From positions 3,040,001 to 3,104,000 of the forward strand of contig CAXXMD010000003.1 of assembly GCA_963675755.2 (NCBI GenBank): a DNA stretch of 64,000 nt. The letters are read 5' to 3'. This DNA is from a bacterium. Lineage in GTDB: Bacteria > Zhuqueibacterota > Zhuqueibacteria > Residuimicrobiales > Krinioviventaceae. A program made the position numbers and the translations under genes. Shown here in pieces: positions 28,922 through 51,160 of this stretch (its first letter is position 1; each line of letters starts with the position of its first letter). The notes beneath the pieces were generated by a model. It was not told where the DNA came from. It saw nothing but the letters and a program-made list of their open reading frames with translations, and ran no database searches.

Positions 28922-30169
28922 TTACACCCATCCCCTGAGTTCACATGCCTCTGCAACTCGTGCAACTCCTACAATCGTTGCGGCAAGACGTGGATGAACA
29001 TGTTTTTCTTTAACAGCGGACATGACGGTATGGTAGGCTGTGGTTAGTTTTTCATCAAGGCGAGTATGTACTGTATTTTCATCCCAGAAATCAGATGTTG
29101 CATTCTGGACCATCTCAAAATGCGATACGGTAACCCCTCCAGCACTGGCTAAAATATCGGGTATTACATGTATTCCCTTGTTATTGAGAATAATATCCGC
29201 TTCAGGAGTAGTGGGACCGTTTGCAAGTTCACATACAATTTTTGCTTTGATTTTCTCCGCATTCTGAGCTGTTATTGCATTTTCCAATGCAGCGGGGTAA
29301 AGTATGTCAACATCTGCTTCCAGAATAGAGTCCCTGTCTACGGCTTTGCCTCCGGGAAAGCCTGCAATGGTACCATGTGTGAGTTTCCATGTTACCAGTT
29401 CTTTTACATCCAACCCATCTGCATTGTAAAGACCACCGCGGGAATCGCAAACTGCGGTTAATCTACCTCCACCCAACAATTCGTGATGAAGCAGCGCCGC
29501 ACGCTGTCCGGCATTGCCAAATCCTTGAATGGCAAATGTACCGGTAGGATCAATGTTTAACACTTTGCATGCTTCACGTACAGTGATAACTCCACCCCGA
29601 GCTGTGGCATCGCGCCTGCCTTCTGTACCACCGATCTTTTGCGGCTTGTCTGTTAATACGCCCGGATGATGCCGCTGAGTAATTACTTCAAATTCATCCA
29701 TCATCCAGGCCATAATCTGAGGATTGGTGTACACATCCGGAGCGGGTACGTCTTTATCAATTCCCAGATATGAAGCTGATGCTCGAATATACGCTCTTGA
29801 AACGTTTTCCATTTCACGTTCAGACATGTTTCGAGGATCGCAGCAGACACCGCCTTTACCGCCGCCCAGTGGCAATCCGGCAACTGCGGTTTTCCAGGTC
29901 ATCCAGCACGCTAGTGCGCGGATGGTATCGACCGTTTCGTCAGGATGAAAACGAATACCGCCTTTTGAGGGACCGCGGGCTGTGTTGTATTGAATTCGCC
30001 AGGCGTGAAAAATTTTGACAGAGCCATCATCCATTTTGACCGGCAGGGTGAATTTAAATTCTCGTTGGGGCCAAATTAACAAGTCGGTTGTTGCCTGGTC
30101 AAGATTCAATAACCTGGCGGCTTCAAGGACCTGTTTTTGTGCCACATTAAAAGAGTTGTATGATTGCAT
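28922..30169 (-). CDS. Glu/Leu/Phe/Val dehydrogenase (small GDH, GudB/Thermotoga-like type)
   Basis: GPSKGGIRFHP, MTWKTA, PLGGGKGG, DVPAPD, QGFGNAG, ELANGPTT, AGGVTVS. Confidence 0.92.
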   Translation of the reverse strand: MQSYNSFNVAQKQVLEAARLLNLDQATTDLLIWPQREFKFTLPVKMDDGSVKIFHAWRIQYNTARGPSKGGIRFHPDETVDTIRALACWMTWKTAVAGLPLGGGKGGVCCDPRNMSEREMENVSRAYIRASASYLGIDKDVPAPDVYTNPQIMAWMMDEFEVITQRHHPGVLTDKPQKIGGTEGRRDATARGGVITVREACKVLNIDPTGTFAIQGFGNAGQRAALLHHELLGGGRLTAVCDSRGGLYNADGLDVKELVTWKLTHGTIAGFPGGKAVDRDSILEADVDILYPAALENAITAQNAEKIKAKIVCELANGPTTPEADIILNNKGIHVIPDILASAGGVTVSHFEMVQNATSDFWDENTVHTRLDEKLTTAYHTVMSAVKEKHVHPRLAATIVGVARVAEACELRGWV

Positions 30170-30184
30170 TGTATACTTTCCTGT

Positions 30185-30358
30185 TTAGGATTTTATATTC
30201 TTGTCATTTTCCGGATGATCGTGAGAATCCAGAAATATACGATACCAGCAGCCTTTACACATCAAGGCCCGATCAACCCGTAACAAGACTTGTTCCCAGG
30301 GTGAAAGTTTTCGCCCACAATGGGGACATGTTTCAGGCACTTTTTCTTGTGTATTCAC
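30185..30358 (-). CDS. Small zinc-ribbon protein (about 57 aa)
   Basis: CPHC...CKGC pair. GTG start right after the upstream stop; the ORF fills the gap between two operon genes. Confidence 0.6.
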   Translation of the reverse strand: MNTQEKVPETCPHCGRKLSPWEQVLLRVDRALMCKGCWYRIFLDSHDHPENDKNIKS

Positions 30359-30359
30359 G

Positions 30360-33353
30360 TTAAATTCCCGGTTTAATAATAACACCACGGCTTTCATGCC
30401 CGTTCATTCTGACGGAGAACGGCTTGTCAAAGCTCAGGTGCTTTGTATATTGTTTTTGCTCTACAATGTTTTGTTGGTTTAACCAATCCCAATCTAAAAA
30501 GCAGTTATTGTTTTGATGATCAATGGTAAAATATCCTACCATAAAAGAGTTCAGGTTCTGAAAAAAGTGAGAACCTTGCGATGGAGTTACATCAATATCT
30601 TTAAATTTAGCTTCAATAATTACTCTGGCGCCTGATATCTGGTCCCACCTGACAGGTATACCCAACCAGGGATCCATACTGCCCCAACGACCAACACCAA
30701 TCAGCAGATAATGCCGATTTTGATCTACCAGTTTTGAATTAAAATAACTGACTTCCTGAGCAACCTGAACACTTGCAGCCCTTTCAAAGATATCTCTGTC
30801 TACCATTATGATATCCTGCAAATGCTCAATAACGCCATTGCCCATGACCTTGGCACTTTTACAGATCATTTCAGTATCCTGGTATTGATCTATATTTAAT
30901 ACTTCCAGTTCCCGGTTCAATACCATGGGGCGCATTTGCAATATGCCAAATTCTTTTTTATCTTTTTGAGATAGATTCACTGCATACTCTATTTCCACCG
31001 GAGTACCCATACCCCAGCGTCCCATATCCAGAATCAGATCAAGAATCTCGGGCAGAGGGAATGTCTTGAATTTCAACAGGGGAGCGAGCGTGATTAACCG
31101 GACTCCTGGTTTTGAAGTGCCGTCATAAATAATGTCATTTTCTTGAGAATAGGTTGAAGCCAGTTGGTTCAAGGTCCCGTCTTGTTCTGCCACAGACAAT
31201 GGGTAGCTTTTAATATGGCTGTCTTCAATGTCTTCAGGATTTTCAGGCTCTTTTGAGAGATCGAGTGCGAAAAATTCGGTTTGTGAATTTTTTACAATGT
31301 ATTTAGGCGCATTGAGTGGGTCCTGACGAGACGGATATTTGGGGCAAAATCTAGCCGCTGTACCACCTTCTACAACTGTTTTGCCCAAACCCAGTGCCGC
31401 GGATGCAATTCCGTCATTGGGCTTTTGTGGTGGCAGTGGATAAAAGTTATAAGACCTGGCAACACCAGCAAAATCAGGATAAAAACGATCATTGTGCCTT
31501 GAGCCTATCATACTTTGAATAATTACAGCCATTTTTTCTTCTTCAAGCCTATATGCAGTTGCTTTGATATAGTTCTTGGCAGCCTGTAAAAAGGTTGAAG
31601 CATAAACCTTTTTGACGGCCCTAAGCAGGTTTGCCAACCGTATTAATGGATCAGGGTGGCTGTTTGGCAGCATATATGTATTATAAACTCCTGCAAAGGG
31701 TTGGTTGTGCGAATCTTCCAATAAACTGGATGATCGTATTGCCAGCGGAGTGTTCACCAGATCCAGAAATGCGATAAGTTCGCCTAAAATTTCTTCAGGA
31801 AAACGTCTGGTTTGTAGAAAACGGTGCATGATTTCCTGATCGTCATGAGTGGATAAAGCAAATGCATGTAGATCGTTTTCATGAAGAAATTCATCAAAAA
31901 CATCCGTACCAATAACAATTGCCGGGGGAATGCTTATTTTTACACCCGGAAACTGGTTGTGGATATTGTAATTGTTGATGAGTATATTTACAAAACTCAG
32001 ACCACGCGCCTTGCCTCCCAGAGAGCCTCCACCAATTCTTGATATGCTGGAATATGGATCATAAGTCTCTTTTTTGAAATCTGTTATAATGCCTTGTTGG
32101 CGTATTTTTCGATATTCTTTCAACGACGCAATTAAATCTTGACGGGCGTTTTCAACATCCGGGAAATCTGTGATTTTGCGTGGACGCAGCTGGTGCGCAA
32201 GCCAGAATTCAGTTCTGGCTTTTAACCAGTTTGAAAAATGATTACGTGCAGCATGGTACAGAATACTTTCGGCAGGTACCGACCTTAATTGTTCTTCAAG
32301 AGAAATTAGATCATTCGCGCGGCCTACTTCAGCACCTTCTTTGGTGTAAAAAACAAAATCTCCAAAACAGAGGTTGTTAATCATAAAGTGCTGCAATTCG
32401 TGCAGCAGAGTAGGCGAGTTTTTCAAAACAAATGAAGCTCCAATGGAATGGGCTTCTTTTTCGTTATCAATATTGTTTGAATTCAATAATACCGGTATAT
32501 CAGGATGGCTGTTTAATACGTATTTTGCGAATTCAAGCCCGGCTCTGGCGTCCATAGCATTGTTGCGTGGGAATTCAATATCTGAAATAACACCCAGAAT
32601 GGTTTCATTGTAATTATCGTAATACGATTTTGCTTCTTCATAGGTTTTACATAAAAGTATTTTGGGCCGTGCCCGCTGTCGCAGTTGCTTGTGAGATAAA
32701 TTAATACCTTCAGAGATCAGGCGCTGTGATTGGCGCATGGTCTCTAGATAGATCATGGGCAGGAAGGAGGAATAATACCTTACATTATCCTCTATTACTA
32801 TAATTGATTGTACACCAACCAGATTTGTATCATGATCTACGTTTAATTTATCTTCCAGATGTTTAATAATAGCAAGTAAAAGTCTAAAATCTCCCTGCCA
32901 GATAAAGATTTGGTCAAAAACTGATGAATCCTGGTGCAAGAGCAAGTCAGACAATTCCCGATTATCGAACGCAAGCAGTACAATTGGTATACCAATATCC
33001 AGAGATTTTACCTTTTCTGCAAAATTGGAAACCCGCATATCTTCAATATGCAAAGTAGTCAAAATAAGGTCGAACCTGCGTTCTTCCTGTATGATTGCCA
33101 GGGCTTCTTTACCGCTCGATACCCGGGTCAACTCGGGCGAGTGACTTAAATTTAATCCCTGGTATTTCTCACGGATCAATTCATATAATCTGCCGTCTTC
33201 TTCGAAAACATAGAGATCATACAAGCTGGATACCAGTAGAATATCTCTGATACGCAATCGCATAAGATTTTGGAACCCTTGAAATCGGGTTCCATACCCA
33301 TGCTCGACCCATAACGGGTCGGCATGGGGCAGAACTTTGATATTAGATGACAT
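30360..33353 (-). CDS. Receiver-like domains fused to a PEP-synthase/PPDK N-terminal (ATP-grasp) domain
   Basis: ILLVSSLYD and IIVIEDN...ISDIEFP receiver-like segments; GGKARGL, AIRSSSLLED...FAG, VEIEYA, LQMRPM. No phospho-His or C-terminal PEP-binding domain is evident. Confidence 0.88.
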   Translation of the reverse strand: MSSNIKVLPHADPLWVEHGYGTRFQGFQNLMRLRIRDILLVSSLYDLYVFEEDGRLYELIREKYQGLNLSHSPELTRVSSGKEALAIIQEERRFDLILTTLHIEDMRVSNFAEKVKSLDIGIPIVLLAFDNRELSDLLLHQDSSVFDQIFIWQGDFRLLLAIIKHLEDKLNVDHDTNLVGVQSIIVIEDNVRYYSSFLPMIYLETMRQSQRLISEGINLSHKQLRQRARPKILLCKTYEEAKSYYDNYNETILGVISDIEFPRNNAMDARAGLEFAKYVLNSHPDIPVLLNSNNIDNEKEAHSIGASFVLKNSPTLLHELQHFMINNLCFGDFVFYTKEGAEVGRANDLISLEEQLRSVPAESILYHAARNHFSNWLKARTEFWLAHQLRPRKITDFPDVENARQDLIASLKEYRKIRQQGIITDFKKETYDPYSSISRIGGGSLGGKARGLSFVNILINNYNIHNQFPGVKISIPPAIVIGTDVFDEFLHENDLHAFALSTHDDQEIMHRFLQTRRFPEEILGELIAFLDLVNTPLAIRSSSLLEDSHNQPFAGVYNTYMLPNSHPDPLIRLANLLRAVKKVYASTFLQAAKNYIKATAYRLEEEKMAVIIQSMIGSRHNDRFYPDFAGVARSYNFYPLPPQKPNDGIASAALGLGKTVVEGGTAARFCPKYPSRQDPLNAPKYIVKNSQTEFFALDLSKEPENPEDIEDSHIKSYPLSVAEQDGTLNQLASTYSQENDIIYDGTSKPGVRLITLAPLLKFKTFPLPEILDLILDMGRWGMGTPVEIEYAVNLSQKDKKEFGILQMRPMVLNRELEVLNIDQYQDTEMICKSAKVMGNGVIEHLQDIIMVDRDIFERAASVQVAQEVSYFNSKLVDQNRHYLLIGVGRWGSMDPWLGIPVRWDQISGARVIIEAKFKDIDVTPSQGSHFFQNLNSFMVGYFTIDHQNNNCFLDWDWLNQQNIVEQKQYTKHLSFDKPFSVRMNGHESRGVIIKPGI

Positions 33354-33371
33354 AGTATCTTTCAATTCTTA

Positions 33372-34733
33372 TTATACAATACCCTGGTCAATCATTGCAT
33401 CCGCAACCTTGAGAAAACCACCAATATTTGCACCATTTACATAATTGCCAGGAGTGCCAAATCTTTCGGCAACATCAACACAGGTTTTATGGATATTTTT
33501 CATGATCATATGCAAACGTTCGTCCACTTCTTTGCGTGTCCAGGGGAGGCGCATCGAGTTTTGTGTCATTTCAAGTCCGGAAACAGCAACACCACCGGCA
33601 TTGGCAGCTTTACCCGGTGCATAGAGCGCGCCCGCATCCAAAAATACTTTGACGCCATCAATGGTTGTGGGCATGTTTGCACCTTCACTGATTACATCAA
33701 CACCGTTCTTGAGCAGGTTTTCAGCATCTTTTTTATTGATTTCATTTTGTGTTGCACTTGGGAAGGCACAATCTGCTTTATGGTCCCAAAGTGGGTTATA
33801 ATCCAGGTTGTGGTCCAGATCGGTATAAACCGCGGTTTTATATTTATCAGCATATTCTTTAATTCTGCCGCGTCGTTGGTTTTTGAGATCCATAACAAAT
33901 TCAAGTTTTTCGCTGTCAATTCCTGCTTCATCATAAATATAACCATTTGAATCAGAAAGTGTAACAACTTTGCCGCCCAGCGCGATTACTTTTTCAGTGG
34001 TATATTGAGCTACATTACCTGAACCTGAAACCAGACAGATCTTTCCTTCAAGTGTTTGTCCTTTGGTTTCAAGCATTTCTGCTGCCATGTATACTGCACC
34101 ATAACCGGTTGCTTCGGGTCTTATCAGAGAGCCACCCCAATTCAGGCCTTTACCTGTAAGTACACCGGTGAATTCATTTTTGAGTTTTTTATATTGGCCA
34201 AAAAGAAAACCGATCTCGCGTCCGCCAACTCCAATATCACCTGCTGGTACATCCGTGTTTGGGCCAATATGACGGTAAAGTTCACTCATAAAGCTCTGGC
34301 AAAAACGCATTACTTCATTATCACTCTTGCCTTTGGGATCAAAGTCAGAGCCACCTTTGCCACCACCCAGTGGAAGCGAGGTAAGACTGTTTTTAAATAC
34401 CTGTTCAAAAGCCAGAAATTTTAAAATACTTAGATTTACAGATGGATGGAACCGGAGTCCGCCTTTATATGGACCAATTGCACTGTTCATTTCAATTCTG
34501 AATCCCCGGTTTATTTGCACTTCTCCCTGATCATCTACCCAGGGAACGCGGAACATGAGAACACGTTCCGGTTCTATGATTCTTTCAAATATTTTTACAG
34601 ATCGGTATTCCGGATAACGGTCATATACCAGCGCTACAGATTCAGCTACTTCTTCCACAGCTTGTAAAAATTCACTTTCATGCGCGTTCTTTGCTTTTAC
34701 ATCGCTCATCAGGGAATTGATAAAATCCGACAT
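33372..34733 (-). CDS. gdhA: Glutamate dehydrogenase, GdhA (NADP-type clade)
   Basis: EFLQAVEEV, EPER, GPYKGGLRFHPSVN, GGGKGGSDFDP, RPEATGYG, SGSGNVA, EGANMP, ANAGGVAVSGLEM. Confidence 0.96.
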   Translation of the reverse strand: MSDFINSLMSDVKAKNAHESEFLQAVEEVAESVALVYDRYPEYRSVKIFERIIEPERVLMFRVPWVDDQGEVQINRGFRIEMNSAIGPYKGGLRFHPSVNLSILKFLAFEQVFKNSLTSLPLGGGKGGSDFDPKGKSDNEVMRFCQSFMSELYRHIGPNTDVPAGDIGVGGREIGFLFGQYKKLKNEFTGVLTGKGLNWGGSLIRPEATGYGAVYMAAEMLETKGQTLEGKICLVSGSGNVAQYTTEKVIALGGKVVTLSDSNGYIYDEAGIDSEKLEFVMDLKNQRRGRIKEYADKYKTAVYTDLDHNLDYNPLWDHKADCAFPSATQNEINKKDAENLLKNGVDVISEGANMPTTIDGVKVFLDAGALYAPGKAANAGGVAVSGLEMTQNSMRLPWTRKEVDERLHMIMKNIHKTCVDVAERFGTPGNYVNGANIGGFLKVADAMIDQGIV

Positions 34734-37262: not shown

Positions 37263-39836
37263 TTAATCATTACTTGCTTGATAATTGGGGTGTTCTATAG
37301 TAATTCCTACTTTTTTTGTATATTCTTGTCCGCTGTTCAAATCTTTTATATTGATGATTAAATCATAAATACCAGTTTCCTGTTTTCCCACAGCCAGATT
37401 GAGATATATGCTTTCATCTCGACTTATACCTTGATAGTCAAATGCCGTTCCGGTTTGCCCGTCTTTTCCCAGCAGACTTTTAAAAAATCCATACAGTTTC
37501 TGTTCTTTAAGGTTTTCTATGGGACCAGCTGGTTTCAAGCTGCATTCTACATTGAAATGAGTTTTAAATTCATTGTTGAGAATTAAATTGTATATTTCAA
37601 AATAGATACCAATTGTAGCATTTGATGGATAAGCTGAAAACATGTGAGGTGTATAAGTGATATCATTTTTGGTGAATTTGGAATATTCGGTTTTTACTGT
37701 AATCGGATTGGATAAAATTACATCACTGGACAATAGTTGATTTGTATTATAGTTAACAATTTGAAGCGTGTCTCTATAAACACCGGTACGATGAGATAAA
37801 AGATCGGTGAATTGTAATTCATAAACATGAGAACCGGGTTTAATTGAAGTGCGGTCTAGTCTTACAGCTGAATTATATTTCCAGGCATCCGGTCTAACAT
37901 CTACCGGTACTTTTTCAGTTTTTTTGATTCTCACTGAAGGGTCCCAATTCCTGTCATACATACCTAAAAATGTTTTCAGATGCAATTCAGGGGGAGACTG
38001 GGAACGGTCCAGAACGGTTTGATTGCCTTCCAGTAGATAATAAAGCTCGAGATCGGTTTGATTGTTTTCACCTTTAAAACTTTTAAAGGTATAGGGAATG
38101 GTTAGTGGTTTTGAAATGTATCTATAATCAGAGCTTTCAGTTTGCAGTGCTGATTTTAGATCCTCAAGTGTTTCATTTTTGAATTCAACACACATACGTT
38201 TGACTTGTTCAATATCTGGCCTGTCCATAAAAGAGACTACACTTAATTGTCCGTATTTAGGATCAAGGTCTTCCCGGCCTGCCGGTGCATACGGTATGGC
38301 TTCTATAACCCATCCCAGAAATCCACCGTATTTTTTGAAATGGAAAATCATTTCGGGGCGGGTATCGGTTTTGAAATATTTCCAACTCAGGTTCATTGGA
38401 AGGTTATCAAAATATTCTTTACGATATAAACTTTCACCCAGGTCAGCTCTGGGAACACGTGGAGCACCAACTGCCATTTGGGCTTCGTCATCGGGTGATT
38501 CGTTCAGTCTTCTGGCAATTTCTCCTGAATTCGCGCTGATACCTCCAACGATGTGACGCATTGCTGCATCATATTCATCCTGTTTTTTTAGACGCCATGA
38601 AATATATTCTTCAGAAATAATATTTGGCATTCCATCCATTGATCTAGCCTGATCATCCGGGAATCCATGGCGTATAAAAATGAGCCCTAGATCGTCCAAA
38701 TCCCGTTCACTGTTGATGACAGCTTGAGGAAAACCTGCTGCTTCGAGCATTTTTGAACCCTGAATATTGTAATTGGCAAAAGGATGTAAATCCTGATAGG
38801 CTACTTCATTGAACCTGTTACTCAACATGTATCTGCGATAGTTTTTTTGAGCAAATGAAAGCCTGCGATAATGTTCTCCAATTCTTTCGTTTTCCAGAGT
38901 AGCATAATTGGGGTCCCGAACATTCCAAAAGCGTTTGTAAAAAATTGGCAGGTCCTGGAGACGGGTGTTTTGTAACTTGTCATGCTCTTTATCTGTTAAA
39001 AGGTAACTGAGATCTTTATAGACTTCAATTACTGTTGTGCTGTCTTGAAGGTTTTCAATAGCTTTCCAATAGTGTTTTAATCCCTTTGCATCATCCTGCA
39101 TATTGAAATAGTTTCTGGCTAAAAGCAGATCAAGCATACTTGTAGAATAATCCGGGAATTTTTTTTGAGTTTCTAATAACTGATCCAGACTGAGCTGGTA
39201 ATGTCCTGCAGCAAAATGGACATGAGCAAGGTTTAAATAATACTGGGGATTATCCGGATTTTTCTCTATCAAATAATTGATGGTTTCGATAATGTTTTCA
39301 TTATCTTGCATCCATAACGCTATTTCAAGGAATTGCTGGAAAATTTCCTGATTGTCAGGATTGTGTCGAATGGCTTTGTTGTATAATTTTAGGGTTTGTT
39401 CCGGCATATCTAATAGTTTATTGGCATTGCCTATTTCAAGCCATGCATCCGAAATAGTGGGATCATATATGACTGCTTTTTCAAAATAATCGCGGGCTTT
39501 GATAATGCGCTTGGGTCGATGTTTGTAGACCATACCCATTTGATAATATGCGCGTGCATATTCCCTGTCAAGTTGAGTCGTCTTTCGGAACTCGTTCAAA
39601 GCATCCCTGCCTGCGGGATTTTTTGAATAATAAACCATACCCATGCCATAATGCGCCTGTGCAATATCGTTATCCTTGTCCAGGATAGACTTGAACAGTT
39701 TTTCTGCTTCTTTTAATTCTTTTTTGTAGACATGTGTCATCCCCTGTTCGAATAATGGCTGCCACCAAAGATCAGCTTCTGATGCAGACAAAACTGTAGA
39801 CAAAATGATTACTGCCAAACCAGTAATATATTTCAA
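37263..39836 (-). CDS. Exported TPR protein with divergent GWxTD domain
   Basis: Signal peptide, multiple TPR-like helices, FWNVRDPNYATLENE...EHYRRL..A and DDLGLIFIRHGFPD (GWxTD-domain pattern), C-terminal IYFEIYNL beta domain. Confidence 0.8.
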   Translation of the reverse strand: MKYITGLAVIILSTVLSASEADLWWQPLFEQGMTHVYKKELKEAEKLFKSILDKDNDIAQAHYGMGMVYYSKNPAGRDALNEFRKTTQLDREYARAYYQMGMVYKHRPKRIIKARDYFEKAVIYDPTISDAWLEIGNANKLLDMPEQTLKLYNKAIRHNPDNQEIFQQFLEIALWMQDNENIIETINYLIEKNPDNPQYYLNLAHVHFAAGHYQLSLDQLLETQKKFPDYSTSMLDLLLARNYFNMQDDAKGLKHYWKAIENLQDSTTVIEVYKDLSYLLTDKEHDKLQNTRLQDLPIFYKRFWNVRDPNYATLENERIGEHYRRLSFAQKNYRRYMLSNRFNEVAYQDLHPFANYNIQGSKMLEAAGFPQAVINSERDLDDLGLIFIRHGFPDDQARSMDGMPNIISEEYISWRLKKQDEYDAAMRHIVGGISANSGEIARRLNESPDDEAQMAVGAPRVPRADLGESLYRKEYFDNLPMNLSWKYFKTDTRPEMIFHFKKYGGFLGWVIEAIPYAPAGREDLDPKYGQLSVVSFMDRPDIEQVKRMCVEFKNETLEDLKSALQTESSDYRYISKPLTIPYTFKSFKGENNQTDLELYYLLEGNQTVLDRSQSPPELHLKTFLGMYDRNWDPSVRIKKTEKVPVDVRPDAWKYNSAVRLDRTSIKPGSHVYELQFTDLLSHRTGVYRDTLQIVNYNTNQLLSSDVILSNPITVKTEYSKFTKNDITYTPHMFSAYPSNATIGIYFEIYNLILNNEFKTHFNVECSLKPAGPIENLKEQKLYGFFKSLLGKDGQTGTAFDYQGISRDESIYLNLAVGKQETGIYDLIINIKDLNSGQEYTKKVGITIEHPNYQASND

Positions 39837-39969: not shown

Positions 39970-40545
39970 TCAAGGAGTTGTGTATGATGGCTCTGTGGGT
40001 TCTGTGACGGCCATGTCACGTTCCCAACCACTGTATTGTAATACAAGGGATTCTATTGCAATTTCGTTTGAATTGGCATCAAACTCGGTTACTGGACTGT
40101 ATTGTGCCGGCCAGCAGTTATAAACCTTGAAGGCCATAACAGTTTGTCCTGCTTCATTCAGCAATTCAATTATTATATCTTTTTTATATTCAGCCTGGGG
40201 TGTACTTGAATTGTTATTCCAGACCTGGGTTGCCCATTGTTCAAAGGATGTATCATGAGTGCGGCCCCGCTCAAGTAAAAGAGGCTGAACAGTTGTTTTT
40301 CCCGGCACCTGTTTAACTGTACCGTTTTTGTCATTTCCTGATTTATAAACCATGATTTGAGTTTCCCGGTGCAAGCCACTGATATGGAAAATTCCGGGTA
40401 TATATTTTCCGTCCCATTTTACTCTGAATTTACTGCGATTATAAGGATTTGTTCGGTGTGTATTTACAGCAAACTCGATTGCAATTGATGAACCTGCTAT
40501 TATAAATATTAAAAAGATTATTGATACAATTCTATTTTTTTTCAT
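39970..40545 (-). CDS. Phage tail tube protein homologue (T4 gp19/eCIS Afp1-like) with N-terminal signal peptide
   Basis: NPYNRSKFRVKWDG, PGKT, LLERGRTHDTSFEQWA, KDIIIELLNEAG, VYNCWP, DANSNEIAIESL, GWERD, EPTEPS. Preceded by MKKNRIVSIIFLIFIIAGSSIA. Confidence 0.88.
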   Translation of the reverse strand: MKKNRIVSIIFLIFIIAGSSIAIEFAVNTHRTNPYNRSKFRVKWDGKYIPGIFHISGLHRETQIMVYKSGNDKNGTVKQVPGKTTVQPLLLERGRTHDTSFEQWATQVWNNNSSTPQAEYKKDIIIELLNEAGQTVMAFKVYNCWPAQYSPVTEFDANSNEIAIESLVLQYSGWERDMAVTEPTEPSYTTP

Positions 40546-40569
40546 AATGAACTCCTGATTTTCAATATA

Positions 40570-41106
40570 TTATCGAATACTGAGGTCACGTTCCCAGCCT
40601 TCATGTTCCAGAACCAGAATTTCCATTGCTTCATCACTACTGTTTTTTTCCAGTTTGGTCAAGGGAACATATTTTGAAGGCCAGCATTTGTAAACCATAA
40701 AAGCCATCAAGGTTCTGCCCGTATTGTCTATCAGTTCAATAATAATATCTTTACGAAAATCTCTCAAAGAGACTTCTGATCCCAATCCGCTGCCCACATA
40801 GCTGACTTTATTTGCCCATTTTTCAAATTCATTGTCCATTGAGCGAGGTCTTTTAAGAACAATGGGTTGATACTCGGTCTGTCCGGGTGCCCTTTGTGCA
40901 GTATTGGGACTTGCTCCATTACGATATTCAATGACCTCGGTTGTTCTTACCAGATCACTAACAAATGAAACATCAGGAATAACCTTTCCATCCCATTTGA
41001 CATGGAAATCGACCTGTACATTCCCGGTTGATGGTGGTTGAGCGGATGAATTAAAAAATAAAGTGAATATAAAGAAGGTTAATAGAATGAATTTTACTTG
41101 TTTCAT
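40570..41106 (-). CDS. Second phage tail tube protein homologue with N-terminal signal peptide
   Basis: FHVKWDG, RTTEVIEYRNG, PGQTEYQPIVLKR, FEKWANKV, GSGLGSEVSLRDFRKDIIIEL, VYKCWP, LEHEGWERD. Preceded by MKQVKFILLTFFIFTLFFNSSA. Confidence 0.88.
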   Translation of the reverse strand: MKQVKFILLTFFIFTLFFNSSAQPPSTGNVQVDFHVKWDGKVIPDVSFVSDLVRTTEVIEYRNGASPNTAQRAPGQTEYQPIVLKRPRSMDNEFEKWANKVSYVGSGLGSEVSLRDFRKDIIIELIDNTGRTLMAFMVYKCWPSKYVPLTKLEKNSSDEAMEILVLEHEGWERDLSIR

Positions 41107-41183
41107 AATTTCCTCCTGATTTGTTATAACTATAAACCCTTGTTATTGCGAATTTATTCTAAATCAGGATATGGTTTTTATTA

Positions 41184-41528
41184 TCAATAAAAGATGAGCA
41201 GGGTCACAAAGAGAAAGAGTTTTAGCAAATTTATTAAATGTAATGGATAATTAAAGCAGAATGTAACCTCGGGTTTTGTTTTCCATTCAATAAAACGCCA
41301 TAGATGGGTAATAATCAGTATGAGGAATAGTATTTTGGTAGCCGAGGGCGTTTCATTCAACATCAAATAAATGAGCAATATAGAAAAGATGATATCTGAA
41401 ATTCCCAGAATAATATTTTTGACCGTGGCCCATAACGTACGCTTCAAGATTACGAGTTTGAGTAACAAGAGAGATGATTCTCCCCCGAGAAGAATTGTAG
41501 TGATTACTATTAGTAAAGAATATCGCAA
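41184..41528 (-). CDS. Small integral membrane hypothetical protein
   Basis: About four hydrophobic segments. TTG start at 41528 chosen because it directly follows the upstream stop. Confidence 0.55.
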   Translation of the reverse strand: MRYSLLIVITTILLGGESSLLLLKLVILKRTLWATVKNIILGISDIIFSILLIYLMLNETPSATKILFLILIITHLWRFIEWKTKPEVTFCFNYPLHLINLLKLFLFVTLLIFY

Positions 41529-41529
41529 A

Positions 41530-42306
41530 TTATTTTTTCCGTGTAAAAAGCAACCCGGACCAGATATTATCAATAGAGCATATTTTATAATCAACCAGGC
41601 CGGCAGCTAGTCCTGTATTGCGTATCAGGGTTTGTGTTAAATCGGTTTTTACCCCCGATGATTTTTTAGGCCAGGCGATCCACAGTTTTTTTTCTCCGTA
41701 TTTCTGGCTGATTGCTGCAATTTGCTCTTCCAGGTCAGCCATGCTGTTGAGAAACCAAAGGGTGACATCACCCTGAGCGTTCCCTGAGGATTGCATTCTG
41801 GCACCAACGGGGAGCTGAGGGGCAAGCATGTCTTTAAAACCTTCAGGTTCATTTAACAGCGTAACAACAGAGTCTGGTTTGATACCGAGTTTTTTAGGAA
41901 GGGGGGTACCCGAATAGGCGGCCATTACAGATTCCGGCACAACAGGGGCCGCGGGAGGAGATTCTATTGCCTGTTTAAGAGCATTTTGAATATGCTCCCA
42001 TTCCGTATAAACGGCATCGGGTAAAATGGATTGGGTTTTTAAAACTTTGTCTGGTTCTCCTTCAACAAATACGAGAGGCATATTACGTGTGTTTTTATAA
42101 CTTCTGAAACCAATTGCTACATCCCGGCCTACTGATGGTTTGCGTGAAAGATCAATAACCATTATATCCGGAGGATCATCACGCAATTGTCTCATGCTCT
42201 TGTTGTCCAGCGGACCTGATGCTACCTGGTAACCCAAAGATTGTAGTATTTCTGATAAAGATACTGCTTTTTCAGCATCCCAATGTAAAAGATAAATTGA
42301 ATACAT
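41530..42306 (-). CDS. Receiver-like domain fused to a DUF3052-like domain
   Basis: PDIMVIDLS...PLVF (REC-like), followed by YSGTPLPKKLGIK...LWIAWPKKSSGV...GLVDYK...WSGL. Confidence 0.72.
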   Translation of the reverse strand: MYSIYLLHWDAEKAVSLSEILQSLGYQVASGPLDNKSMRQLRDDPPDIMVIDLSRKPSVGRDVAIGFRSYKNTRNMPLVFVEGEPDKVLKTQSILPDAVYTEWEHIQNALKQAIESPPAAPVVPESVMAAYSGTPLPKKLGIKPDSVVTLLNEPEGFKDMLAPQLPVGARMQSSGNAQGDVTLWFLNSMADLEEQIAAISQKYGEKKLWIAWPKKSSGVKTDLTQTLIRNTGLAAGLVDYKICSIDNIWSGLLFTRKK

Positions 42307-48936: not shown

Positions 48937-51075
48937 TTATTTAATCATAACCATTTTTTTTGAATATGTGTGTAATGCGGTTTGAGTTTTAATGTTTACC
49001 TGATAAAAGTAAACTCCCGAACTCGATACTTTACCGTTATAGTTTGTTCCATTCCAGGTATTTTGGTGATACCCGGCATTCAACTGTGAATTATTCAAAC
49101 AGTTTACTTTTCTTCCGTTAATGTCATAAATGTTTATTTCAACATTCGCTTTTTCATCCAATTGAAAGGATATACGGGTTTGTGCGTTAAAAGGATTGGG
49201 ATAATTTTGATTTAGAATAAATCCATCAGGAACAGGATTGGATTTGCTATTGATTGCCAATGTAGGGTCTTTTTCAAAAATGGTGAAAATACCGGTATCG
49301 TCCCGGATGATGAGTTCATCTGAACCATCATTATAAATGTCATAAAATGTGGGGACATATTCTCCATAATAATCAATATTAACAAAGGCATCATTCCAAC
49401 GGGCCCAGGCGGGGGATTGGGCATTGCCAATGTTTTCAAAGGCATACAATGAATCCGTAGCACTGTATTTAACAATCATATCAAAATCACCATCCTGATC
49501 CAGATCGCTGAATGTAGAGTAATGGAAAACGGTGTTTGGCAGTCCTTGTTTCCAGTCCTGTCTTAATTTCCAGGTAGAATCCGGATCTTGTGTATTTTCA
49601 TAAAAATGATACGCGCTGGGATAATTGTAATTTTCTTCACCAATGTCCATGACTGTTTTTTCGCGGAAAATAAAATCAAGGTCACCATCGTTATCCAGAT
49701 CATAAAAGTTAATGTCCAGAAACAGGGTGCTGTCAAACTGGCTAAAGATCATATCATTTAAACTGGTTTTGCTGGTCCATTCGCCGCTCAGGTCCGGTTT
49801 CGAGTTTTCATAAACATTTGTATAACTGTAATACATGTAATGATGTGTGTAAATAAATTCGGGCAGGCCATTATTGTCAAAATCTGTCAACTGGTCTTTG
49901 TAAGAGTCTCCTTCCGTATAAGTGGTAAACTCTGTTTCTGAGGGCGTGTGTTTGTAGAATAAGCAGTTCATCAGCGTATCTGGTGTGAGGCGAACGGGTT
50001 TTAGCCCAAATTCTATCCAACCTCTATAACCATTGACAAAAAGTAAAGATGGAAAGCGATTATTCAATTGAAATGGATAAATTCTTGAGAATGGTAAAGC
50101 AGGTAAAGAATTCAATACATAATAATTGGGATCAAAGGGCTGCTCTGCATTACCAGTGGCTAAATAAATACGACAAACGCGTTTCCCATCAATGACAAAT
50201 AAATCCTTTTTCCCATCTTTATTATAATCATAAGGGAAAATGGAATTGATGGTATCATTGATCTCAATATTTGGCAAATTTTGTTCATTTGAAAAGTTGA
50301 ATCCGTTTGAATCCTGTCTGCCATAAAATAATTTAATTTTGTAAATACCTTCTGTAATACTGATAATCAGCATATCAACCAGACTGTCGTTGTTTACATG
50401 CATCATGGTTGGAGAGATGTATTCATAGCTCAATGTGTTTTTTGTAGCATTTTGTAAAACGGTCGAGTCTTTTTCCCAAGCAGGTTCGCTTGCATTACCA
50501 ATATTTCTAAAAAAGGATAAATTTAGTACTCCAAGTCCTATATAGCTATTATTCACTAGCAAGTCTAGATCTCCATCGGAATCTATATCAAAGAAAGATG
50601 GATTGTCTGGTGTATACGAAGCTATTTCAAAACTAACATCTTTGAATGTATCCGGATTAAGGGTCAAGGTTAGTGTGCTGTCAATTTCCCAGTCATACAG
50701 TTCTGTGGCATCTCTGATGATTATATTCGGATTACCATCTGCATCAATATCCTGGATTGTAAAGCCCATATTACCTATGCAGCCTTCAATTCTTGTTTCA
50801 TATATTTTATCGGGTAGATAATATGGGGGTGTTTCTGTGTCTTGTCCTAAAAAGATTTGGAGTTTTCGCCAAGTCCAATCTTTATGTTTCCCTAAAATTG
50901 CCAAATCCGTAATACCATCCTTATTAAAATCACAAGGTGCCATAGCATTAACGAAAATATCTAACCCCGATGGATTCAACGGGCGGGTGTCAGCCATCCA
51001 GTGGATGGGTACAGCAAAAAGATTGAAATTCAGGATTAAAATAATAATTTGAAAAAGGTGTTTTGAATTAATCAT
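48937..51075 (-). CDS. Secreted FG-GAP/VCBS repeat protein with FlgD-Ig C-terminal domain
   Basis: Repeated DxDxDGDxD motifs (DFNKDGITD, DIDSDGDLD, DLDNDGDLD, DLDQDGDFD); C-terminal LNQNYPNPFNA...KKMVMIK. Confidence 0.85.
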   Translation of the reverse strand: MINSKHLFQIIILILNFNLFAVPIHWMADTRPLNPSGLDIFVNAMAPCDFNKDGITDLAILGKHKDWTWRKLQIFLGQDTETPPYYLPDKIYETRIEGCIGNMGFTIQDIDADGNPNIIIRDATELYDWEIDSTLTLTLNPDTFKDVSFEIASYTPDNPSFFDIDSDGDLDLLVNNSYIGLGVLNLSFFRNIGNASEPAWEKDSTVLQNATKNTLSYEYISPTMMHVNNDSLVDMLIISITEGIYKIKLFYGRQDSNGFNFSNEQNLPNIEINDTINSIFPYDYNKDGKKDLFVIDGKRVCRIYLATGNAEQPFDPNYYVLNSLPALPFSRIYPFQLNNRFPSLLFVNGYRGWIEFGLKPVRLTPDTLMNCLFYKHTPSETEFTTYTEGDSYKDQLTDFDNNGLPEFIYTHHYMYYSYTNVYENSKPDLSGEWTSKTSLNDMIFSQFDSTLFLDINFYDLDNDGDLDFIFREKTVMDIGEENYNYPSAYHFYENTQDPDSTWKLRQDWKQGLPNTVFHYSTFSDLDQDGDFDMIVKYSATDSLYAFENIGNAQSPAWARWNDAFVNIDYYGEYVPTFYDIYNDGSDELIIRDDTGIFTIFEKDPTLAINSKSNPVPDGFILNQNYPNPFNAQTRISFQLDEKANVEINIYDINGRKVNCLNNSQLNAGYHQNTWNGTNYNGKVSSSGVYFYQVNIKTQTALHTYSKKMVMIK

Positions 51076-51160
51076 GATACTTCCCCCTATCAAAATTAAA
51101 AATGGTGTTGTTATTAATAGTTAATAATAATTGTAAATAAAGTCAACATTTTTTTGAAAT

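Follow-up and report, generated by a model that had tools for sequence, protein, structure and literature searches.

How a protein of the kind that forms the inner tube of a contractile injection system (CIS) could come to work outside the cytoplasm is the question raised by two small genes, here called TubeB and TubeA, which lie in tandem on the minus strand of a 64,000-nucleotide stretch of bacterial DNA (the window; contig CAXXMD010000003.1 of assembly GCA_963675755.2). To our knowledge, the tube proteins of phages, tailocins, extracellular contractile injection systems (eCIS) and secretion systems of type VI (T6SS) fold and are assembled within the cytoplasm, and get out of the cell only by lysis or contraction. 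The two window proteins belong to the same family of tubes, each starts with a predicted signal peptide, and searches of the genome that carries them found no sheath, baseplate or spike. It is very probable that they are exported and independent of any CIS, and the evidence for this comes from their family assignment, their leaders, the genome around them and the recurrence of the same pair in several phyla.

The original prediction for this locus held that two tandem open reading frames (ORFs) carry the hallmark motifs of the gp19/eCIS tube family. Its coordinates were right, and every motif that it listed is present in both proteins (FRVKWDG/FHVKWDG, PGKT/PGQT, FEQWA/FEKWA, KDIIIEL, VYNCWP/VYKCWP and GWERD). 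The family match that it anticipated was found by profile search, as Pfam PF06841 (Phage_T4_gp19, cut-off 28.2 bits) matches TubeA with 129.1 bits (E 1.2e-37) over profile positions 4-134 of 134 and TubeB with 102.7 bits (E 1.7e-29) over positions 2-134, while TIGR02241 (cut-off 62.4 bits) gives 127.8 and 91.6 bits, respectively. Both proteins also match PHROG 4542, 'tail tube protein'. The best solved relatives of TubeA are the AlgoCIS tube (7adz, E 1.9e-15), 9r9h, Anabaena All3324 (7b5h), Afp1 and Pvc1. Judged by these profile matches, which are far beyond chance, TubeA and TubeB are clear members of the Phage_T4_gp19/TIGR02241 family. Neither reaches the cut-offs of the CIS1 and CIS5 equivalogs (NF053769 and NF053770; 220 and 260 bits), to which TubeA scores 55.9 and 60 bits and TubeB 43 and 28.3 bits. 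The window proteins represent two types of paralogue, A and B, whose profiles align with 100% probability at 33% identity (hhalign). The B-type does not have the N- and C-terminal extensions of the A-type and has instead a variable linker of 8-39 residues.

The leaders are 22 residues long in both proteins, and are MKKNRIVSIIFLIFIIAGSSIA in TubeA, where the mature protein would start with IEFAVN, and MKQVKFILLTFFIFTLFFNSSA in TubeB, where it would start with QPPSTG. Both have two to three Lys or Arg residues, a hydrophobic core of 13 residues and small residues at positions -3 and -1, and neither contains a Cys or a twin-Arg. They thereby show the features of a substrate of the Sec pathway and signal peptidase I (SPase I), namely a positively charged n-region, a hydrophobic h-region of 7-15 residues and a -3/-1 site of small uncharged residues, without a lipobox or twin-Arg motif. 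The leaders must be translated because there is no in-frame Met at the mature starts. The predicted cut leaves an N-terminus of the form x-[E/D/Q]-F-x-V-N, which is that of the leaderless relatives, M-[A/P]-[Q/E]-F-x-V-N, and this agrees with the earlier suggestion that a signal-peptide-like leader was added onto an intact tube.

The homologues point the same way. Among the 120 closest homologues of TubeA, 95 have a hydrophobic leader and 20 have none, and the remaining five comprise one that is leader-like by eye (P0013), two with short leader stubs (that of P0120 strongly hydrophobic) and two with non-hydrophobic extensions. Of 121 A-type leaders, 99 have Ala three residues ahead of the conserved Phe, 9 have Gly there and 6 have Ser (114/121 with one of the three). 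In the same set, the residue five before the Phe is A, S, V, G, T or I in 103, the distance from Met1 to the Phe is 28 residues in 78, and the first eight residues contain on average 2.06 Lys or Arg. All 51 B-type homologues have leaders by a rule that required K/R followed by a hydrophobic core (Kyte-Doolittle value, KD, of at least 2.0) and a -3/-1 site. As a negative control within the family, none of the 77 tube rows from loci bearing CIS genes was flagged with a leader. Leader-bearing homologues number in the hundreds, so that the many signal-bearing relatives sought on the basis of the original prediction do exist. The leaders are best read as cleavable Sec signals on an otherwise complete tube, and export is well supported by these comparisons.

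The absence of other tail genes, which had been noted for the 64 kb of the window, extends to the whole genome, an assembly of 6.48 Mb in three contigs that is 98% complete. TubeA and TubeB are its only gp19 matches in a profile search. There are no genome matches to the sheath (PF04984, PF17482), gp25 (PF04965), Baseplate_J (PF04865) or the spike Phage_GPD (PF05954), for all of which the controls were positive, and none to the T6SS sheath VipB (PF05943), whose control was positive in E. coli; no search with an Hcp model was made. CIS_tube (PF19266) and Pvc16_N (PF14065) were also without a match, but the control genomes were silent for these two, so they are weaker negatives. Finally, six proteins from L025, a verified eCIS locus of Desulfoluna, and 54 ORFs that flank tubes in sheath-bearing genomes of the same phylum were used as tblastn queries against the genome, and gave only two generic AAA-domain matches and one shadow-ORF match on the tube genes themselves. 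Judged by these searches, the pair is not part of an eCIS, in which a sheath, baseplate, spike, Pvc16/terminator and AAA protein would lie beside the tube, nor of a T6SS with its TssC/VipB sheath.

The pair is not peculiar to the window. The order B then A on the same strand, with leaders on both and gaps of -14 to +145 nt (24 nt between the TubeB stop and the TubeA start in the window), was found in 13 loci, which are the window and L003, L004, L005, L009, L013, L057, L060, L062, L064, L067, L068 and L073. With L072, where the B-type is cut by the start of the contig, there are 14. The proteins of L003 are 94% and 91% identical to those of the window. The loci include a metagenome-assembled genome (MAG) assigned to KSB1, of the same family as the window's genome, and one assigned to Brevinematales, as well as unclassified MAGs, and the named sources of the proteins further include Eisenbacteria, Calditrichia, Latescibacterota and Syntrophaceae. 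A sheath was found in none of five other carrier genomes, each of which has exactly two gp19 matches, and two of the five tested loci sit on chromosome-level MAG records. Of 167 genomes of the phylum that were surveyed, 34 carry gp19, 24 a sheath (23 over the cut-off) and eight the leader-bearing pair (G000, G095, G091, which is the genome of L005, G115, G125, G030, G033 and G042). None of the eight has a sheath over the cut-off, although G030 has a sub-threshold match of 21 bits on another contig. These tallies include two genomes flagged as unpublished (G168 and G172), on which no claim rests. None of 20 leader-bearing loci has a homologue of any of the six eCIS proteins nearby, and all-against-all BLAST of the ORFs around such loci returned nothing but shadow ORFs of the tube genes and members of generic families. 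By these comparisons the pair is a B-then-A cassette that is conserved and co-inherited in several phyla, and not a one-off of the window's genome.

The pair belongs to a distinct subfamily of tubes of about 174 residues, recognized in alignments by an N-terminal F.VN..R.DPYK block, an EP.EP tail and an insertion of about ten residues, GSGLG.EVSL, relative to the AlgoCIS and Anabaena tubes. A careful tree (LG+C20 PMSF) was built with 79 of 147 rows, after removal of CIS or unclassified rows that were at least 78% identical and of duplicate loci of the same genomes (L001, L002, L003, L030-L037, L061, L065 and L066); its bootstrap was not fully settled. A quick tree used 129 of 228 full-domain rows, with rows at least 75% identical removed. 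The careful tree separates this subfamily from the short Afp1-like tubes at 100/100, and the A/B split falls inside it and does not derive from the split between Afp1 and Afp5. All 13 B-type rows form one clade (98/95, in 97% of bootstrap trees), and the 13 paired A-types, with TubeA among them, group together (83/97). Sub-groupings are shared by the two halves, with L009+L073 and L062+L068 (+L064) in both, and L004+L005 and L057+L060 also shared, with support that is weak or unresolved in places. The B clade, the group of paired A-types and the matching sub-groupings together indicate a single origin of the pair, which has since been passed on as a unit. In the quick tree at least 13 changes of the leader label are required, compared with a mean of 40.6 when labels are shuffled, and the wider family has therefore gained or lost leaders on more than one occasion.

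The genes also appear to be maintained. Relative to L003, the ratio of nonsynonymous to synonymous substitution rates (dN/dS) is 0.21 for the full TubeA gene and 0.13 for TubeB, and falls to 0.126 and 0.084 for the mature parts, while the leaders give 0.46 and 1.1 from very few changes. Signal peptides usually keep their character rather than their sequence, and the leaders follow this pattern. These ratios indicate purifying selection on the mature parts of genes that are not decaying. When group consensus sequences are compared, almost all residues conserved in the CIS-embedded tubes are kept in both A- and B-types, and the mean column identity is 65% in the A alignment and 56% in the B alignment.

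A comparison with known systems shows what the pair shares with them and where it departs. The leaderless tubes of about 171-180 residues from one lineage of eCIS are of the same subfamily (41-52% identity to TubeA) and share with it the F.VN..R.DPYK.FKFRVKWDG block, the GSGLG.EVSL insertion of about ten residues and an EGWERD...EP.EP tail. They differ in having Met directly before the block and no leader, in lying directly after a sheath gene, and at a few core positions, with CWVSEFQ where the exported forms have CWPS.Y and RGVTHD where they have RGRTHD. The L025 locus is an example, with sheath, tube, T4_baseplate-like, Pvc16_N, AAA ATPase and CIS_tube genes, and a sheath homologue lies near a leaderless tube in 36 of 80 metagenome loci (same-phylum examples are G167, G073, G142 and G171). 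The solved CIS tubes (7adz, 7b5h, Afp1 in 6rao and Pvc1 in 6j0b) are of the same Pfam family and match over nearly the whole tube domain (E 1.9e-15 to 4.4e-06), but they are only 142-156 residues long and have no signal peptide, N- or C-terminal extension or loop insertion. Such tubes assemble in the cytoplasm, inside a sheath and on a baseplate. Afp1/Afp5 and Pvc1/Pvc5 (CIS1 'inner tube' and CIS5 'inner tube adaptor') are likewise two tube paralogues encoded together, and by analogy one paralogue of the window could form the bulk of an assembly and the other an adaptor ring. Hcp of the T6SS is also a tube protein that forms rings, comes to lie outside the cytoplasm and can hold cargo in its lumen, but it is of another Pfam family and is expelled by contraction of the sheath and not through Sec.

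Closest in sequence are leaderless tubes that also have no CIS neighbors (54-60% identity to the window tubes for L007, L071, L074 and L079, and 48-52% to TubeA for L010, L011, L012 and L015). They share the CWPSEY and AiEs states with the exported forms, and differ from the window pair in being single genes without a leader that are presumably cytoplasmic. Fourteen rows with enough flanking DNA are of this kind. No sheath was found in the genomes of the five that were searched (L007, L010, L011, L012 and L015), and single leaderless tube genes with no CIS gene nearby were also seen in metagenome loci L071, L074, L079, L081 and L117. Presumably these leaderless orphans are a second, cytoplasmic class of orphan tube.

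In the mechanism that we infer from these sequences, from export and cleavage to oligomeric state and cellular role, TubeB and TubeA would be threaded unfolded through SecYEG by their cleavable Sec-type signal peptides, cut by SPase I at an A-x-A-type site, and folded in the periplasm or envelope of a diderm bacterium of the KSB1 phylum. They would act without contraction, because the genome has no sheath, baseplate or spike. As both paralogues keep the core residues of CIS tubes and are co-inherited, their most likely product would be a hetero-oligomeric ring or short stack, in which TubeA, as the full-length protein, would be the main subunit, and TubeB, a stripped core on a flexible linker, might be a nucleating, anchoring or tethered ring. 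A stand-alone TubeB-TubeA operon of Sec-exported CIS-tube paralogues that form such a ring or stack without a CIS is, as a whole, the explanation that we consider probable. Its assembly component, a ring or tube-like structure of A and B, is the more tentative part and is, if anything, a shade less probable than its contrary. The original prediction, which had such a co-opted, exported and sheath-less assembly in mind, comes out partly supported overall, and nothing was found that contradicts it, whether a missing family match, a later start codon, a complete eCIS locus elsewhere in the genome or signs of decay.

Several points weigh against this explanation or parts of it. The leader calls are those of simple rules of our own (hydrophobicity and a -3/-1 site). 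The A-types overall are not one clade, and the deep order of exported, orphan and CIS-embedded tubes in the tree is a polytomy, so that a CIS tube that gained a leader is at most a plausible direction of change. Pairing is not obligatory, as L006 and L080 have single leader-bearing A-types with flanks long enough to show a partner, and L028 has a different exported form. The lack of conserved neighbors gives no hint of function. An avoidance of CIS by carriers of the pair, which was considered, was rejected, as 0 of 8 versus 23 of 167 genomes is too few to claim it. Lastly, it is only the retention of conserved residues that suggests ring or tube assembly.

The alternative that survives best, although we regard it as rather unlikely, accepts export and dispenses with tube building: the tube fold would be re-used as a soluble periplasmic module, either a carrier or chaperone in the form of a single hexameric ring or a binding protein, with TubeA and TubeB forming a heterodimer or acting separately. 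Hcp rings serve as carrier and chaperone for T6SS effectors. The leaders (in 95/120 close homologues and in the sets of 121 A-types and 51/51 B-types) are accounted for equally well by this alternative. It is also favored by a genome in which no initiator, tape-measure or terminator gene was found, these being the components that template the growth of the tube in CIS, by the single A-types that exist without B, and by NNSSTPQ in TubeA of the window in place of the GSGLGSE loop of the family. On the other hand, nearly all core residues of assembling CIS tubes are kept in both paralogues across phyla, the column identities of the two alignments seem to exceed the constraint usual for a simple binding module, and the strict co-inheritance of the paralogues suggests that they assemble together. 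A bolder form of the assembly idea is unlikely in our view. Here the two proteins would build a sheath-less, non-contractile nanotube or stacked-ring conduit outside the cytoplasm, nucleated by B, which may be lipid-anchored in some lineages, and polymerized from A.

Very much less probable is that the proteins are an envelope decoy or cap, that is, periplasmic mimics that bind the tube tip of an incoming eCIS, tailocin or phage and block delivery. Such mimics would have retained the ring-stacking faces of the lineage of CIS tubes that is common in the phylum. The idea is attractive in that leaderless tubes of the same subfamily adjoin sheath genes in the same phylum (G167, G073, G142 and G171), in that the exported proteins keep the conserved core, and in that the envelope would be the only place for a resident protein to encounter an incoming tube. 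However, neither tube protein matches any PADLOC family, there is no linkage to defense genes, an incoming tube has a spike over its tip, the CIS counts above are not significant, and no test spoke directly for this alternative. Lower still in probability are uncleaved anchors or artefacts of gene calling, with the proteins serving as normal tubes in a CIS whose remaining components have diverged or scattered so far that they escape recognition. The simple leader rules and the two absence searches with silent controls leave some room for this, as do eCIS with tube and baseplate genes at separate loci, which are reported in an eCIS census (Chen et al., 2019; PMC6899500). Against it stand the A-x-A-type site (A, G or S at -1) of 114 of the 121 A-type leaders, strong ribosome-binding sites (RBSs) with no alternative Met at either start, the absence of sheath, gp25, baseplate-J, spike and T6SS sheath in searches with positive controls, the tblastn search with same-phylum queries, and the lack of a sheath in all five other carrier genomes. 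Moreover, hydrophobic cores of 13 residues are too short to span a membrane. The last alternative, decaying remnants of a lost eCIS or prophage with fortuitously hydrophobic N-termini, would suit orphan genes in a housekeeping neighborhood but is refuted by dN/dS and the tree, given intact frames, ratios of 0.13-0.21, a pair that has kept both leaders across KSB1, Brevinematales and other lineages, and the hundreds of leader-bearing homologues.

The explanation of an exported, CIS-independent pair seems to have no precedent in the literature searched. A full-text search, which did not extend to subscription journals, returned nothing on signal-bearing or exported tail-tube proteins, and signal peptides are not mentioned in the main texts of two eCIS censuses (PMC6899500; 10.1101/2020.09.22.308684). 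The screen described in the main text of the former demanded a baseplate gene alongside the tube gene, and orphan tubes would for this reason have fallen outside it. A conserved, selected and co-inherited pair that is routed to Sec and has no CIS would mean that the tube module leads a life of its own in the envelope of several little-studied phyla, where one component of a cytoplasmic nanomachine appears to have been put to new use. If the proteins still form rings or tubes, they would constitute a new envelope structure and a compact two-gene scaffold that self-assembles, and if they do not, they would be a clear case in which a structural protein of phages took on a new function. Should the conduit be real, it would be the first phage-tail tube to be re-invented as a periplasmic or surface organelle. 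Either way, the two proteins, which are small and suitable for expression in E. coli, are a concrete target.

Coordinates of the TubeB-TubeA pair and associated features in the window (positions on the 64,000-nucleotide stretch)
Feature	Coordinates	Strand	Description and basis
TubeB, first gene of the pair	40570..41106	minus	178 aa; B-type gp19-family tube paralogue, predicted exported; ORF and profile matches
TubeA, second gene of the pair	39970..40545	minus	191 aa; A-type gp19-family tube paralogue, predicted exported; ORF and profile matches
TubeB signal peptide	41041..41106	minus	22 aa (MKQVK / FILLTFFIFTLFF / NSSA); predicted SPase I cut after Ala22; sequence reading
TubeA signal peptide	40480..40545	minus	22 aa (MKKNR / IVSIIFLIFIIAG / SSIA); predicted SPase I cut after Ala22; sequence reading
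TubeB mature part	40573..41040	minus	156 aa; Pro-rich linker of 11 aa (QPPSTGNVQVD) followed by the tube core (FHVKWDG to GWERD)
TubeA mature part	39973..40479	minus	169 aa; IEFAVNTHRTNPY..., tube core, C-terminal EP.EPS tail; alignment
TubeB RBS	41112..41117	minus	AGGAGG, 5 nt 5' of ATG; kept in L003
TubeA RBS	40552..40556	minus	AGGAG, 6 nt 5' of ATG; sequence reading
Proximal upstream region	41107..41245	minus	Presumed promoter region of the two-gene operon; partly conserved with L003
AT-only palindrome over the TubeA stop codon	39946..39971	minus	Partly conserved in L003; absent from terminator-scan output

A promoter scan gave 13 sites compared with 8.1 +/- 2.8 expected and was uninformative about the presumed promoter. 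Of seven sequencing runs listed, from three studies, none is on record as RNA. The last ~140 nt before the TubeB ATG align with L003, while in the region at 41107-41529 the distal ~300 nt of the two are unrelated, even though the proteins encoded on either side share 91-98% identity. A hydrophobic ORF of 136 aa in this vicinity (41184-41594) was considered and rejected as a gene, as it is unconserved and has no open frame in L003. The AT-only palindrome is possibly a weak terminator, for which the terminator scan gives no support.

Exported tubes also occur in forms outside the A/B pair clades. A different exported form of 297 aa is encoded at 9563-10456 of L028, a MAG of Terracidiphilus, and in P0095, P0104, P0144, P0145, P0128 and P0138 the signal peptide is followed by a linker or extra region of 25-60 residues before the tube domain. 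Their position outside these clades suggests that their leaders were acquired independently. Five of the 51 B-types (P0303, P0304, P0306, P0314 and P0330, the last recognized by eye and the other four flagged by script), one of which is named as Syntrophaceae, carry a Gly-Cys immediately behind the core and then a PPGPP-like stretch, and are possible lipoprotein variants with non-canonical lipoboxes.

Among the leaderless relatives, the tube in L014 (9938-11327), L084, L091, L105 and L122 has a homologue of the L025 CIS_tube protein as its sole recognizable CIS companion, with no sheath, baseplate-like, Pvc16 or AAA homologue in the DNA that was fetched. In L014 this homologue (PF19266, as in L025) is directly downstream of the tube, and such a couple is possibly a minimal two-gene remnant or module. 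A search for fusions among longer relatives found three proteins, with AAA or sheath C-terminal domains, and no exported fusion. Eight long predicted proteins that join a sheath C-terminal region or AAA to the tube domain (P0130, P0165, P0169, P0240, P0241, P0269, P0356 and P0357) probably reflect the merging of gene calls in eCIS loci rather than natural fusions.

The neighbors of the pair in the window are housekeeping genes, which encode two glutamate dehydrogenases, a PPDK-like protein, an FGGY kinase, an FKBP and a secreted TPR protein, together with DASS and MFS transporters, a GH2-like protein and an FG-GAP protein with a tail of the type IX secretion system (T9SS). The TPR protein (857 aa, 37263-39836, minus strand) has a signal-like leader and TPR repeats and is encoded 133 nt downstream of the pair on the same strand. 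This protein and the 258-aa protein encoded upstream are kept only in the near-identical relative L003, and the TPR protein is probably outside the cassette. At 28922-34733 (minus strand), a protein of 1001 aa that has a PPDK_N domain and a weak match to a response-regulator receiver lies between two paralogues of glutamate/leucine dehydrogenase (415 and 453 aa; 29% identity). T9SS sorting domains are absent from TubeA and TubeB. One is present, as a C-terminal Por_Secre_tail / CHU_C domain, on the 718-aa FG-GAP repeat protein encoded at 48937-51093 (minus strand), which makes it probable that the organism has a T9SS.

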